A model generated the notes under the pieces. That model did not search any database and was not told the DNA's origin. It was given only the letters and a program-made list of their open reading frames with translations. The translations under genes and the position numbers were made by a program. From the IMG/VR virus record IMGVR_UViG_2534681703_000014, positions 1-45,442 of that record: a stretch of 45,442 nucleotides of DNA; one strand, 5' to 3'. Source of the stretch: a virus. Lineage: Duplodnaviria > Heunggongvirae > Uroviricota > Caudoviricetes. Positions 1,704 through 17,076 of the stretch are shown one piece after another; position 1 is the stretch's first letter; every line of letters begins with the position of its first letter.

Positions 1704-4175
1704 TTAAAAATCAGCCTGACTCGGGATCAGTTTTTGCCAGATAGCTGAAACGTATTTTGCCTGGTAACGAGCGTCATCAAGTGCATTATGGCGCTCACCT
1801 TCGAATGGGATAGCAGTTCTGGCATCGAAGTCTATGGCTTTCCCCAGCTCAACGATTGTGCGTACATCGCGATCGTTGTAGTAACGCCACGGGCAGGGGA
1901 TCCCCTGCCGCTCGTATGAACGGCGCAAAATAGTGTTGTCGAAGTTGGCTCCATTTCCCCAGACCTGAACAAAAAATTCACCGGAGTTTTCGTCGATAAA
2001 TTCCCGCAATTGTAACAGTGCATCATCTAACGGGATTTCATCGGTCATAATGGCAGATTGCGCTTCGCGTGATTGTTTAAGCCACCATTTAATGGTGTCC
2101 CGATCAATGACTCCGCCAGCAGTTTCCAGATCGATAGTCTTACTAAATTCCGGTCCCATATCTCCGGTTTGCGGATCGAAAAATATTGCACCTATTGAGA
2201 TAATCGGGGCATCGGGATTTTTTCCCATGGTTTCAAGGTCGATCATCAGATGAATCCCCGCTCTGCTGGTGGATGTGAGATTATGATGACCGTTCGCCTT
2301 AATTAAGGGATCTGACGCCTCGCCAGTTTCACTATCGCTGGCATGATGCTGATTGCCGCCAGTGTTCTCCTTGTGCTGATGCGCAGTGCCTTCCATTTCC
2401 TCCGGATCATTTTCCTGAACTTCAGGCTGATTCTCTCCATCGAATATTTCCTGGTATGTTGCGTCACCCATCACCGCACCACAATCAGGGCAGTTGCCGC
2501 CACCGCTCTGACCGCAGGCGGTGCAGATCTTTTCCGGTTCCTGTTGCACTACTGGTTCAGGTTGTTTCGTTTCTGGCTCGTTTTGTTGCGTATTTTGGCT
2601 GTTTTGTTCCGCTTTCTGGTCGTTCTGTTCCGTTTCTTGCTGGTTCTGGTTCGCAGAATCGCGGGTCTGGATCCCCTTAACCCATTTCGGATCATTCGGG
2701 TCGCTAATCCCTTCAACAAATTCACCACGTGATACTGCAAGCAGTTCATCGGCGTCAGGCTGGCTGATATTGGCTGCCTGCATAATTTTGTTTACTTCGT
2801 CAGCGGTAACTTTTACCGGTTCTGGCTGTGCGGTCGTGTCAGATGCACCAGTATTTTGTTGTGAACCTGAGTATGTACCGTTTTTGCGGGCGAAATATTC
2901 TTCTTTCGTGATTTCAGTAGCCCCTGCAGCCAGTGCCTTATCCAGACCAGAAAGTTTGTTTGCGCGACCGTATTTTTCGCCATCCTTGTCGGTGAAGAGG
3001 AAGTAGAACGGCCCCTCACGCTCTACAGATGGTTCGACTTCCACTTTGCATTCGGTTTTTTCGTTGTCCGGAATTGCCGTTTCCACTGCATCAGTTTCTG
3101 GTACTGGCGACGAGAGAGTATCAGTTGCGCTCTGATTTGTTCCTTCATCTTCAAACACGCCCTTTGTAGTCAGGTATTCAGTAATGTATTTGTTCAGTGC
3201 CACAGGATCTTTGTGAATGTCGATCGGACGTCCACGGACAAGGCCAAAAATAGTCTGGCGGTCGTAGCGAAGGGCATCAGGCTGTTTGCGCATCGATGCC
3301 GAGATACGCTTCCAGTCTTCGCGGTCGTTGTCGATAACTTCATTTTTTGCCCAGCGATGGATGCTGCCGTCAATGTTTCCGGCATCCACATCACCAGGCC
3401 AGAGAGCGTAGGCCAGTTCGTCATCCAGTGTTTTCCATGTCTGCTTGTATTCGCGATGAATGACTGCAGTGACAGGGGAGATATTTTCTGCTGAGTTTTC
3501 AGTGTGCTGTCGGTTGACTCTGGCGCGGGCGAGATCAACAGCAGACGTGTATTTTCCGGTTTCCTTGCGTTCACCTTCGCGACGTTTTTTCCAGATGCGC
3601 ATCTCTGCCTGAATTTCGGGCCATTTAGCTCCAGGCTTACATTTATGCTTAACCCACCCGATGGCATGCAACTTAAGTTCTGGATACATGGCGTTAACTT
3701 CTGGCATTTTCATCAACGCTTCAACGATATGTCCGTCGAATGTTGCCATGTCTTCCTGCAACAATTCCTGCGCGCTAATCACCATATCAACGGTGATGTT
3801 TTCACATGTGTCGAACTTAACCATGACAGCGTTCTGTACTTCAGGGGCCAGCTTGTCAAAAGTGACGTTCATCGGATCTGATTCAGTCTCAACCGGGACA
3901 AAGGAAGCAGACTCCTCATCCCAGCGGTTTTCCTGCATATATTCAGCATCCCAGGAATCGAGGGCAGGGCGGGGTATACCGGGTTTATCCTCGCAAACAA
4001 GAAATTTATAAGCGCAGTCCTGAGCAGCCGGATATTGCTCCAGGAATTGCCAGGTAAATTTGGCACGGGCGCGGCGTTCGTCACCGGCTTCAATGGCAGT
4101 GGCTACAGCAACTGCACCTTCTTCCTTTATTGCCTGTTCGTCCGGAATGGCAGCGCAAATAAAGACTTTACTCAT
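1704..4175 (-). CDS. Prophage exonuclease, 823 aa, with C-terminal DnaQ-like (DEDDh) 3'-5' exonuclease domain
   Basis: C-terminal motifs MIDLETMG ... HNALDDA fit the DnaQ/RNase T fold; central Q/N/E-rich low-complexity linker; position matches the exo slot of lambdoid early-left operons. Confidence 0.8.
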   Translation of the reverse strand: MSKVFICAAIPDEQAIKEEGAVAVATAIEAGDERRARAKFTWQFLEQYPAAQDCAYKFLVCEDKPGIPRPALDSWDAEYMQENRWDEESASFVPVETESDPMNVTFDKLAPEVQNAVMVKFDTCENITVDMVISAQELLQEDMATFDGHIVEALMKMPEVNAMYPELKLHAIGWVKHKCKPGAKWPEIQAEMRIWKKRREGERKETGKYTSAVDLARARVNRQHTENSAENISPVTAVIHREYKQTWKTLDDELAYALWPGDVDAGNIDGSIHRWAKNEVIDNDREDWKRISASMRKQPDALRYDRQTIFGLVRGRPIDIHKDPVALNKYITEYLTTKGVFEDEGTNQSATDTLSSPVPETDAVETAIPDNEKTECKVEVEPSVEREGPFYFLFTDKDGEKYGRANKLSGLDKALAAGATEITKEEYFARKNGTYSGSQQNTGASDTTAQPEPVKVTADEVNKIMQAANISQPDADELLAVSRGEFVEGISDPNDPKWVKGIQTRDSANQNQQETEQNDQKAEQNSQNTQQNEPETKQPEPVVQQEPEKICTACGQSGGGNCPDCGAVMGDATYQEIFDGENQPEVQENDPEEMEGTAHQHKENTGGNQHHASDSETGEASDPLIKANGHHNLTSTSRAGIHLMIDLETMGKNPDAPIISIGAIFFDPQTGDMGPEFSKTIDLETAGGVIDRDTIKWWLKQSREAQSAIMTDEIPLDDALLQLREFIDENSGEFFVQVWGNGANFDNTILRRSYERQGIPCPWRYYNDRDVRTIVELGKAIDFDARTAIPFEGERHNALDDARYQAKYVSAIWQKLIPSQADF

Positions 4176-11535: not shown

Positions 11536-11679
11536 ATTTAGCACTGTAAATAATTTTAATCCTTAACCTGAGGGATTTCTGCACCCTCAGAACATCAGTA
11601 GGCCGCCCGAAAGGGCGGGAAGCAGTCACACATTTGTTTCCGATAGTCCCGTTCTAATGCTAGACTATTTGATATTTTC

Positions 11680-12366
11680 ATGACCACAATAAATACGTTT
11701 ATGACAGTTGCTGATTTCAAACGGCCTAAATTGGAGCTCCCAAACGGGGCAAACAAACTACTACTGCACTCTTGCTGTGCTCCATGTTCCGGTGAAGTGA
11801 TGGAGGCGCTTCAGGCCTCGGGAATCGACTACACCATCTTTTTCTACAACCCGAACATTCATCCTCAGAAAGAGTATTTAATTCGTAAGGATGAGAATAT
11901 TCGCTTTGCTGAACAACACGGCGTGCAGTTTATCGATGCTGATTACGACACAGACAACTGGTTTGAACGTGCCAAAGGAATGGAATGGGAGCCCGAGAGG
12001 GGGATCCGTTGTACCATGTGTTTTGACATGCGTTTTGAGCGGACAGCGTTGTACGCTGCTGAAAATGGTTTCAGTGTGATCAGCAGTTCGCTGGGCATTT
12101 CACGCTGGAAAAATATGCAGCAGGTTAACGACTGTGGGCGGCGAGCCGTCGCGCATTATCCGGGAATGGTGTACTGGGATTATAACTGGCGCAAGCAGGG
12201 CGGCTCGTCCCGTATGATTGAAATCAGCAAGCGCGAAAAATTCTATCAGCAGGAATATTGTGGCTGTGTGTATTCTCTGCGCGATACCAATCTACACCGC
12301 AAATCTCAGGGACGCCCTCTTATCAAAATTGGTCAACTCCACTACGGTAAAGAAGAGAAGGAGTGA
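11680..12366 (+). CDS. queH: Epoxyqueuosine reductase QueH family (DUF208)
   Basis: N-terminal [11 protein letters not shown] and later CGCVYS motifs match the QueH/DUF208 Cys signature as I recall it; 228 aa. Confidence 0.7.
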
Positions 12367-12602
12367 TTTTATGGATCACCTTTCTGATTGATTTCATATT
12401 GGCGAGGTAGCAGGAGTTAAGTAGAATTGCTGCGGGTGCTTGAGGCTATCTGTCTCAGGCATGAACACCAAAAGGCAGATAGAGAAAAGCCCCAGTTAAC
12501 ATTACGCGTCCTGCAAGACGCTTAACATTAATCTGAGGCCATATCTATGCGACACATAGAGATTAGCCTCTTACGGACCGAAAGGTCAAGGAGAAGCAGG
12601 CT

Positions 12603-12758
12603 ATGAAGCAGCGAAAGGCGATGTTAATCGCCCTGATCGTCATCTGTTTAACCGTCATAGTGACGGCACTGGTAACGAGGAAAGACCTCTGCGAGGTACG
12701 AATCCGAACCGGCCAGACGGAGGTCGCTGTCTTCACAGCTTACGAACCTGAGGAGTAA
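12603..12758 (+). CDS. hok: Hok/Gef-family type I toxin (51 aa)
   Basis: Translation MKQRKAMLIALIVICLTVIVTALVTRKDLCEVRIRTGQTEVAVFTAYEPEE aligns by eye with Hok ([52 protein letters not shown]); not in the ORF track (under 60 aa). Confidence 0.7.
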   Translation: MKQRKAMLIALIVICLTVIVTALVTRKDLCEVRIRTGQTEVAVFTAYEPEE

Positions 12759-12827
12759 GAGACCTGGCGGGGGAGAAATCCCTCGCCACCTCTGATGTGT
12801 CAGGCATCCTCAATGCACCCGCACTTA

Positions 12828-12853
12828 ACCCGCTTCGGCGGGTTTTGTTTTTT
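12828..12853 (+). terminator. Rho-independent terminator downstream of hok
   Basis: Hairpin ACCCGC-TTCG-GCGGGT followed by TTTGTTTTTT. Confidence 0.55.
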
Positions 12854-15622: not shown

Positions 15623-16534
15623 TTAAAGTAGTTTCCTATCTGCCGCCGCTCTGTGGCGTATAACCTTAGTAATACTATAGCGTGGTTTAGACAGCGCGCC
15701 ATTTGTTTCTTTTGTTGTTTCTGTCAGTTCTACAACAAAAAGATCACCCTTACAGAATGCTGCTTGGTTGTGTTCAACCCGTTCAAGAAAAGCCTCATCT
15801 TTCATAGATGCACTAACTTCTTCGCCATTTGGCAGGATGATATCCCAGCTTTTGCCTTGCTTGAATCGAACATTAGCAAAATGTACATTAGCTTGGCGTG
15901 TCGTTACGTGCGTTTTCTCGACAAAGGTGGATTTTGCAGTTTTAAAACTTACTGCTTCAGCTTGCGTCACCCTGACTACCTTATGCTTCTGCTGTGAAAC
16001 TGAGAACGTGGATGGTTTTTCAGTCTGCAGGGGTTTATAGATTAATTTATCCAGTTCTTTTCGGATGATTGGACTGGTTATTAATTTTTGAATGTCGTTA
16101 CTGCATTTAACCTTCTCACCATCCACTTCGATTTCTGCTGTATCTTTTTGTTCATCGACGACAATGGAGCTGATTTTACGCCCTTTGAGCCATTCGATTA
16201 TCCCGAGTACGCCACCTGCGGCAACTCCACCACCTGCAACGAGGCCAAGGGCGTTAATAGTTTTTATGCTCCCCATCACAGCAACAAGCAAAGTAAATGA
16301 ACCTTCTTTTGTTGCCTTGATGTTGACTTTCGGCTCTGCTGTTTCGCCATTAATTATTTTTTCGGCGTGTTCAATCAGGGCACTAAGAGAGGTTAAGGCT
16401 TCGCCTAATGTTTTCGCGTCGATCTGATTATCTGCGTATGCCTCTCCACCGTAGGCAATTTCGATTTCTGTTATTGGCATGTTTTCGAGTTGCTGCGTCA
16501 TCAAAAGCATCCTTTGCGCAAGAGAAATAGCCAC
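15623..16534 (-). CDS. Unknown 303-aa protein with central Gly-rich hydrophobic segment and Lys-rich C-terminal domain; first gene of cassette
   Basis: Long ORF; hydrophobic FTLLVAVMGSIKTINALGLVAGGGVAAGGVLGIIEWL near residues 80-115; start uncertain (GTG 16534, ATG 16510 or 16480); no family recognised. Confidence 0.55.
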   Translation of the reverse strand: MAISLAQRMLLMTQQLENMPITEIEIAYGGEAYADNQIDAKTLGEALTSLSALIEHAEKIINGETAEPKVNIKATKEGSFTLLVAVMGSIKTINALGLVAGGGVAAGGVLGIIEWLKGRKISSIVVDEQKDTAEIEVDGEKVKCSNDIQKLITSPIIRKELDKLIYKPLQTEKPSTFSVSQQKHKVVRVTQAEAVSFKTAKSTFVEKTHVTTRQANVHFANVRFKQGKSWDIILPNGEEVSASMKDEAFLERVEHNQAAFCKGDLFVVELTETTKETNGALSKPRYSITKVIRHRAAADRKLL

Positions 16535-16766: not shown

Positions 16767-16842
16767 GGCCCTTTAGCTCAGTGGTGAGAGCGAGCGACTC
16801 ATAATCGCCAGGTCGCTGGTTCAAATCCAGCAAGGGCCACCA
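16767..16842 (+). tRNA. tRNA with CAU anticodon, resembling E. coli tRNA-Ile2 (ileX-like); Met cannot be excluded
   Basis: Manual cloverleaf: acceptor GGCCCTT/AAGGGCC, D-arm GCTC..GAGC, anticodon loop CTCATAA, T-arm GCTGG-TTCAAAT-CCAGC, 3' ACCA. Confidence 0.85.
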
Positions 16843-16843
16843 A

Positions 16844-16920
16844 CCGCCACTAGCTCATCAGGAAAGAGCGTCAACCCTTTAAGTTGAGTGTGCGAGGTTC
16901 GAGTCCCCGGTGGCGGTCCA
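16844..16920 (+). tRNA. Atypical tRNA-like gene, apparent anticodon UUU (Lys) with C33 and U73
   Basis: Acceptor CCGCCAC/GTGGCGG, D-arm GCTC..GAGC, anticodon stem TCAAC/GTTGA with loop CCTTTAA, T-loop TTCGAGT with one stem mismatch, 3' TCCA. Confidence 0.5.
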
Positions 16921-16922
16921 GT

Positions 16923-16998
<76 letters not shown>

Positions 16999-17001
16999 TA
17001 T

Positions 17002-17076
<75 letters not shown>

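Follow-up and report, generated by a model that had tools for sequence, protein, structure and literature searches.

Why does a prophage carry a gene for the last step of queuosine (Q) synthesis in a bacterium that already has an enzyme for that step? The question is raised by the IMG/VR virus record IMGVR_UViG_2534681703_000014, all 45,442 nucleotides of which were analysed (hereafter the window). The window is a lambdoid Escherichia coli prophage that encodes a protein of the QueH family of epoxyqueuosine reductases. The explanation that we find rather probable is that this gene, queH, is functional and self-expressed, benefits the host, and provides a cobalamin-independent backup to the resident enzyme, QueG.

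A first-pass annotation of this DNA, made from its letters, described a 228-residue open reading frame (ORF) with a QueH-type cysteine motif and named the product a QueH-like epoxyqueuosine reductase. The ORF (11680–12366, plus strand) was confirmed, with the motif at residues 27–37, and family membership is borne out by profile, homology and fold. In a hidden Markov model search, which the annotation had proposed, the protein matches Pfam PF02677 (QueH) end to end, over model positions 1–174 of 175 (E=1.6e-65, 220.9 bits against a cutoff of 23.5), with the conserved cysteines all kept. It aligns with Thermotoga maritima QueH (PDB 7lc5) over residues 27–203 at 31% identity (E=3e-22). An AlphaFold2 model computed from a 41-sequence alignment has a mean predicted local distance difference test score (pLDDT) of 95.3 and a predicted template-modelling score (pTM) of 0.91, and superposes on 7lc5 with a root-mean-square deviation (rmsd) of 1.2 Å and a TM score of 0.92–0.93. 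The five best fold matches in the PDB are all T. maritima QueH (target-normalised TM 0.90–0.93, rmsd 1.2–1.9 Å); TtuA, LarE and other PP-loop/AANH-type enzymes follow far behind, at E values around 1e-4. The architecture of QueG is absent, PF02677 being the sole Pfam family in the protein and the fold search returning neither QueG nor reductive dehalogenases. An NCBIfam search of the protein gave no match, though the annotation pipeline PGAP names it QueH, and is uninformative.

The residues expected of the family are also in place. For comparison, 4,736 family proteins (E≤0.001) were clustered at 50% identity into 150 representatives. The seven conserved cysteines are intact at C32, C33, C36, C111, C114, C194 and C196 (C25, C26, C29, C104, C107, C187 and C189 in the 221-residue numbering introduced below), in the arrangement CCxPC...RCxxC...CGC, as are the near-invariant H30, N57, N59, R110, R118, S141, Q191, Y193, G195 and S199. 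Each of these positions is conserved in about 80–99% of 85–141 family representatives, and the prophage protein matches all the invariant columns of the 41-sequence alignment. Its motif reads CCAPC where that of T. maritima reads CCAPD, the aspartate being Asp13, the residue mutated in PDB 9dco. We considered whether this cysteine marks a divergent or neofunctionalised active site and rejected the idea: the position is Cys in 113 of the 118 informative representatives and Asp in three, making cysteine the family norm and aspartate rare.

Judged by sequence and predicted fold, the prophage protein is a bona fide QueH-family epoxyqueuosine reductase. It has the full-length domain, the fold and the conserved residues in common with T. 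maritima QueH (PF02677, DUF208, COG1636, EC 1.17.99.6), and by analogy the reaction, conversion of epoxyqueuosine (oQ) to Q at position 34 of tRNA without cobalamin, is presumed to be the same. Besides the motif residue, the prophage protein differs from the T. maritima enzyme in being borne by a prophage in a host already equipped with QueG, and in a C-terminal tail of 20–25 residues that is common to enterobacterial homologues.

The true start of queH is probably not the first ATG of the ORF (ATG1, 11680) but the second (ATG2, 11701), which yields a protein of 221 residues. We prefer ATG2 and reject ATG1 because chromosomal homologues align with their starts at ATG2, because PGAP begins the gene there in E. 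coli 042, and because the intervening sequence behaves unlike the gene. The stretch of seven codons that separates the two starts varies freely from copy to copy (MTTINTF, MTPIKIF or MNLINTF), the remainder of the protein being nearly invariant, and in one copy this stretch contains a 1-nt indel. ATG1 is missing from plasmid, chromosomal and second phage-allele copies, and ATG2 aligns in all. No purine run resembling a Shine-Dalgarno (SD) sequence precedes either codon (TTTGATATTTTC-ATG at 11680, AATAAATACGTTT-ATG at 11701), in agreement with the annotation, which had noted the lack of an SD.

The gene lies in the nin-equivalent region of the prophage, as had been proposed from the letters. 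On its upstream side come an O-like gene that contains a DnaT domain, a lambda-P-like replication gene, and genes of the DUF1627 and DUF977 families; hok, a DUF968/HNH gene, RusA and antiterminator Q follow it downstream. Within this region queH forms a mobile single-gene cassette, which was delimited by the breakpoints of homology with relatives. In 56 of 82 loci that carry queH, the match to the window starts exactly at 11630. In vB_EcoS-640R1, a relative lacking queH, homology ends at 11618 and resumes at 12415, and the slot is filled by three small unrelated ORFs. Homology with Escherichia phage HannyBb breaks at 12372. The cassette is found in at least five upstream and at least three downstream contexts; a hok/sok module adjoins queH downstream in 67 of 79 loci, and the two often travel together. 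Two adjacent GC-rich hairpins stand just upstream of the left boundary, CTGAGGG...CCCTCAG and a CCGCCC-GAAA-GGGCGG tetraloop stem. They lack a T-tract, were not called by the terminator scan, and are restricted to the window-type upstream context (21 of 81 loci).

The QueH protein is under strong purifying selection and is maintained. The 82 full-length copies represent 22 nucleotide haplotypes and seven proteins, with an internal stop in none. Variable sites number 8, 2 and 49 at codon positions 1, 2 and 3, so that variation is almost entirely synonymous. The median pairwise ratio of nonsynonymous to synonymous divergence (dN/dS) is 0.03, with dS reaching 0.31.

The cassette is widespread in the host species. 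At a threshold of 90% nucleotide identity or more, queH is present in 995 of 5,426 complete E. coli genomes, almost always as a single chromosomal copy that PGAP labels 'epoxyqueuosine reductase QueH'. Carriers include sequence type ST131 (EC958, JJ2434), O104:H4, O157:H7, O111:H11, the avian pathogenic strain APEC O1, and 042; E. albertii has the same lambdoid cassette at 99%. In E. coli 042 the gene lies in a Rac-like cryptic prophage with recE, kilR, sieB, ydaS/T/U/V and trkG (L001, NC_017626.1 1537335–1556021). The Rac prophage of E. coli K-12 presumably lacks the queH segment. Downstream of queH, the 042 prophage has tRNA-Thr and tRNA-Gly genes.

The first-pass annotation had suggested looking for queG or queH in the host genome. 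We found queG in every one of the 5,426 genomes, and hence in all that carry queH, strain 042 included: queG is core and queH is accessory. The two enzymes are expected to catalyse the same reaction on the same substrate tRNAs in the same cells, and they are unrelated in fold and cofactor, a cobamide being needed by QueG and not by QueH (PMC5615194, PMC4646009). PMC5615194 and PMC5372724 describe QueG as cobalamin-dependent and QueH as its cobalamin-independent, non-orthologous replacement, and the latter paper credits E. coli with the full Q pathway. The cobamide dependence of oQ-to-Q conversion in E. coli and Salmonella is attributed to Frey et al. 1988 in PMC4646009 and PMC5175355, through which we cite it. 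E. coli takes up cobamides via BtuB (PMC11841063).

Where did the cassette come from? Its closest relatives outside the cassette group are chromosomal genes, 86–92% identical, in Scandinavium, Kluyvera, Enterobacter and metagenomic Enterobacteriaceae, and no phage gene was found within 6 kb of them. The Erwinia gene order is purL-queH-glrK-glrR-glnB-hmp-glyA. Chromosomal queH of Scandinavium, Kluyvera, Enterobacter, Erwinia and Pantoea, with a protein identity of 88–92%, has the same start codon, SD-less leader and extended −10-like element (see below) as the prophage copy. The settings differ: the chromosomal genes stand in core neighbourhoods, whereas the prophage copy forms a 0.75-kb cassette within the early region of a lambdoid element.

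A second queH allele, 87–89% identical, is found in six other lambdoid prophage contigs (L105, L097, L098, L112, L114 and L115). It sits between DnaC-like/DUF1627 genes and nin/RusA/Q genes, antisense to the phage operon. This allele has no match in complete E. coli genomes, and its host is provisionally placed near Enterobacter by tree position. A neighbour-joining tree places the E. coli allele beside Scandinavium and Kluyvera and puts the antisense one with Enterobacter. Both phage alleles thus stand nearer to chromosomal genes than to one another, a pattern that points to independent captures; the tree has no bootstrap and is suggestive only.

Carriage is not confined to phages. We found queH on 302 plasmids; 99 of these records come from Klebsiella and 67 from Escherichia, and many of the plasmids are conjugative. 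On two IncF-type examples the gene lies among insertion sequences, TonB-family genes and fec iron-uptake genes, and phage genes are absent. The copies L234 and L235 (Table 1) retain the TTCCCGATAG...TGCTACACT upstream element and lack ATG1.

The upstream regions of the phage, plasmid and chromosomal copies do not align, apart from a short element at a fixed position. TGCTA(C/G/A)A(A/C)T, which has the form of an extended −10 (TGn plus TAnAnT), occurs at the same distance from the gene in both phage alleles and in plasmid and chromosomal Enterobacteriaceae copies; in the window it reads TGCTAGACT. Across 79 species loci, matches to TGnTAnnnT peak in a single 10-nt bin, with 14 matches against 0–3 elsewhere over 400 nt. 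Another 17–18 nt upstream, TTCC(C)GATAG is common to type-1 phage copies and to the Klebsiella and Salmonella plasmid copies, and the left edge of the cassette at 11630 falls just outside this block. The TTCCGA within it matches TTGACA at three of six positions, and its assignment as a −35 element is tentative. We infer that the native promoter of queH is part of the cassette and that transcription would begin near 11672–11675, giving an SD-less leader of about 27 nt; an SD-less leader also precedes the chromosomal copies. The second allele, being antisense to the phage operon, could be expressed only from a promoter of its own.

These features resemble those of lambdoid phage morons. The prophage queH is likewise a single-gene insertion, is missing in related phages, has variable flanks and a candidate promoter of its own, and in one allele is antisense to phage transcription. 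It departs from morons in its cargo, a housekeeping tRNA-modification enzyme instead of a virulence or exclusion factor. It also departs from them in that no flanking terminator was found, and its expression in the lysogen is predicted from sequence.

Based on these observations, we suggest that queH was captured from the chromosome of a related member of the Enterobacteriaceae as a cassette of about 0.75 kb that included the native promoter region. It would be moron-like, a self-expressed accessory gene whose own promoter would keep it active in the lysogen. The product, a presumed Fe-S enzyme that does without cobalamin, would reduce oQ to Q at position 34 of host tRNA-Asn, -Asp, -His and -Tyr. 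Because QueG needs a cobamide, which E. coli does not synthesise de novo, prophage QueH would free the last Q step from external vitamin B12, and the tRNAs of the lysogen would keep Q, not oQ, when corrinoids are scarce. The plasmid copies, the antisense allele and the retention of queH in a cryptic prophage speak more for an advantage to the host or lysogen than for a role confined to the lytic cycle.

Several points weigh against this explanation. Enzymatic activity, transcription in the lysogen from the −10-like element and the benefit under B12 limitation are all predictions from sequence, and the assignment of metal ligands is drawn from conservation and from the titles of PDB mutant entries. 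The promoter is proposed at the level of a consensus. A generic promoter scan around queH called no upstream site, the candidate having come only from comparative alignment, and the terminator scan found none between the queH stop (12366) and the hok region, the nearest on the plus strand being at 12827–12844, beyond hok. In the window queH points the same way as the early operon and could equally well be expressed from pR in the lytic phase. The gut is in general rich in corrinoids, and B12 limitation may be rare in the main habitat of the host. We know of no established physiological difference between oQ-tRNA and Q-tRNA, and deletion of queG had no growth effect in one reported assay.

Of the other explanations, the one that survives best, though we consider it unlikely, is that queH is an auxiliary gene of the lytic cycle. 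It would be expressed delayed-early from pR upon induction or infection, and rapid conversion of oQ to Q would aid the translation of late genes, which are richer in U-ending Asn, Asp, His and Tyr codons. In the window the gene does run in the same direction as the operon from replication to Q, and such a role is compatible with a benefit to the host. The share of NAU codons is 59.5% in the phage late genes and 49.9% in 28 host core genes, a modest gap that supports translation tuning weakly at best, and we know of no decoding difference between oQ and Q. The antisense orientation of the second allele, the presence of nearly the same gene and upstream element on plasmids free of phage genes, and the retention of queH in the Rac-like cryptic prophage all argue against a lytic function. 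In Shewanella, infection by a phage raises the Q/oQ ratio through induction of queG, so that this step is under regulation in infected cells; that rise was reported as a host response tied to phage resistance, not as a benefit to the phage (preprint 10.64898/2026.03.05.709803).

The first-pass annotation had gone further and linked QueH to four tRNA genes, proposing that the phage tunes host translation. The link to the tRNAs does not hold. They lie 4.4 kb from queH, beyond antiterminator Q, in a separate module, and their anticodons are CAU, UUU, UGU and UCC. Queuosine is made only on tRNAs with GUN anticodons, those for Asn, Asp, His and Tyr (PMC9508795, PMC5372724). None of the four has such an anticodon, and QueH therefore cannot modify them; we reject a functional link on these grounds. 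The broader proposal stands in part: conversion of oQ to Q on host tRNAs is plausible, but the antisense allele, the plasmids and the cryptic prophage make the benefit look directed to the host or lysogen.

It is quite improbable, in our judgement, that queH is a hitch-hiking passenger with no selected function, persisting through successful prophages and the adjacent hok/sok addiction module. Redundancy with a universal queG and the frequency with which hok adjoins the gene would fit such a passenger, and we know of no phenotype of queH. The low median dN/dS at an appreciable dS and the absence of disrupted copies among the 82 argue otherwise, as do the repeated acquisition by two prophage lineages and many plasmids and the conservation of the upstream element.

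We give still less credence to a role in phage-host conflict, in which QueH would alter the tRNA or 7-deazaguanine state against superinfecting phages or would counter a defence based on queuosine intermediates. There is some context for it. The second-allele queH is directly followed on its own strand by an AIPR/AbiU-like abortive-infection gene (L105 9944–12527), and the same locus holds an FRG-domain PDC-S15 candidate defence gene (L105 6801–7601). The window itself has a PDC-S42 candidate defence gene, and PMC13639016 places QueC-family proteins in the QatABCD and type IV CBASS defence systems. However, PADLOC models gave no match to QueH, the 88–92% identity to housekeeping chromosomal enzymes with all conserved residues kept does not suggest a new function, and any cargo in an accessory hotspot of prophages would be expected to have defence genes as neighbours.

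A last proposal, which the first-pass annotation had also raised, is action on 7-deazaguanine derivatives. We know of no epoxyqueuosine-type DNA base. That QueH serves a phage DNA-modification pathway by acting on free nucleosides or on 7-deazaguanine in DNA is so improbable that we reject it: preQ0-pathway genes are common in phages for DNA modification (PMC6884629) and a QueH structure with bound free queuosine exists (9deu), but Pfam, PHROGs and PADLOC scans of the window ORFs found no DpdA or tRNA-guanine transglycosylase (TGT)-like gene and no FolE, QueD, QueE, QueC, QueF or QueA, and QueA, QueG and QueH were not associated with such systems in a survey of phage deazaguanine genes (PMC6884629). 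Along its right arm, the window matches genes annotated as structural. Phage 7-deazaguanine sets, such as DpdA with FolE/QueD/QueE/QueC in phages 9g and CAjan, likewise borrow enzymes of the queuosine pathway (PMC6884629). They differ from the prophage gene in modifying phage DNA, by way of the early preQ0 half of the pathway and a DNA transglycosylase, whereas prophage queH represents the last, tRNA-specific step and stands alone.

If queH is instead a cobalamin-independent backup for the host, its mobility may matter beyond this prophage. We raise as a tentative possibility that mobile queH, on prophages in about 18% of E. coli and on IncF-type plasmids in Klebsiella, Salmonella and E. coli, is a conversion factor making queuosine maturation independent of the cobalamin supply. 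If so, strains would differ in oQ- versus Q-tRNA in B12-poor niches (urine, blood, water) or after loss of BtuB. An inferiority of oQ-tRNA to Q-tRNA in function would also be implied, which to our knowledge has never been shown. In a bolder extension, the Q/oQ state may be contested between phages and hosts, given the position of queH beside Abi-type genes and the induction of queG in Shewanella. How Asn, Asp, His and Tyr codons are decoded is influenced by queuosine, for which links to biofilm formation, virulence, metal stress and oxidative stress have also been described (PMC10570037, PMC9508795). The standard example of a species that uses QueG is E. coli. Should the prophage enzyme be functional in nearly one fifth of its strains, the oQ/Q state under B12 limitation would be strain-dependent and transmissible by phage and plasmid, and studies of Q phenotypes outside K-12, those with queG mutants among them, would have to consider queH.

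Apart from the prophage cassette, QueH is rare in viruses. IMG/VR holds 188 near-identical queH copies, and a profile scan of 2.9 million viral contigs returned only 206 QueH-encoding stretches, from which this rarity follows. In the phage collection, one isolated phage carries the gene, Escherichia phage HannyBb (PP925841 33011–33697), where it is annotated as a 'hypothetical protein'. Matches in 'phage' databases outside E. coli comprise unannotated fecal contigs, 'phage' records of 280–380 kb, and Staphylococcus and Listeria records, and look unreliable as evidence of phage carriage. Four IMG/VR contigs (L089, L090, L095 and L093) encode more divergent QueH, for which identities of 53%, 75% and 79% are given, and none of the window's phage genes was detected near these genes. 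The QueH of L093 lies at the very edge of its contig, groups with Enterobacter MGH24, and may be host flank.

The QueH enzyme family, its function and the RefSeq annotation of the prophage gene are already known. In the literature searched we found no description of the prophage QueH. Relative to that literature, what is new is a Q-specific late-pathway gene on temperate phages and plasmids, its frequency in E. coli, always on top of queG, and what appears from sequence comparison to be its repeated capture together with a promoter. Hutinet et al. 2019 did not find homologues of QueA, QueG or QueH in the viruses they analysed (PMC6884629), and the present finding amends the statement that viruses lack Q-specific late-pathway genes. 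The gene has also gone unrecognised by phage annotation resources: PHROG 3217, listed with 'unknown function', corresponds to the prophage QueH from Met41 onward (11800–12366). This entry and the 'hypothetical' label of the HannyBb copy need updating.

Table 1. Coordinates of queH, its cassette and candidate control elements, other features of the window, and two plasmid copies
Feature	Location	Strand	Remarks
Mobile single-gene queH cassette, minimal shared module	11630..12372	+	about 0.75 kb; breakpoints versus relatives
queH coding sequence, most probable start	11701..12366	+	221 residues plus stop; epoxyqueuosine reductase QueH
In-frame upstream extension, ATG1 plus six codons	11680..11700	+	probably 5' untranslated leader, not coding
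Extended −10-like element TGCTAGACT (TGn + TAGACT)	11658..11666	+	about 35 nt upstream of ATG2
Conserved TTCCGATAG block with weak −35-like TTCCGA	11638..11646	+	17 nt upstream of TAGACT
Two adjacent GC-rich hairpins	11566–11622	+	
hok/sok-type toxin module	12399–12758	+	directly 3' of queH
Promoter-like site in hok/sok module	12399–12427		
303-residue gene	15623–16534	−	
Four tRNA genes	16767–17076		
First tRNA gene of the four	16767–16842	+	
823-residue early-left gene	1704–4175	−	
Plasmid queH, L234	4946–5614		K. pneumoniae pHNGS471-3
Plasmid queH, L235	7001–7669		S. enterica pCFSAN024441_02

Other features of the prophage were noted in passing. Its left end encodes a lambda-type integrase, and the right side holds lambda-like head and tail genes. 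The Hok/Gef domain of the module that follows queH matches Pfam with E=1.2e-23, and a promoter-like site lies at its start. ARAGORN calls the first tRNA of the cluster Met (CAT); we take it to resemble E. coli ileX, the tRNA-Ile2 that reads AUA after lysidine modification, as in the clusters of Shiga toxin (Stx) phages. Between antiterminator Q and the tRNA cluster, antisense to the late operon, is a 303-residue gene that matches the PADLOC candidate defence family PDC-S42 (E=3e-53) and PHROG 3243 (unknown function) and has no Pfam match; it is probably another accessory or defence moron. The 823-residue early-left gene has a large N-terminal region with no Pfam match and a C-terminal Rv2179c-like 3'-5' exoribonuclease (DEDDh) domain, and E. 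coli relatives label its counterpart 'exonuclease'.

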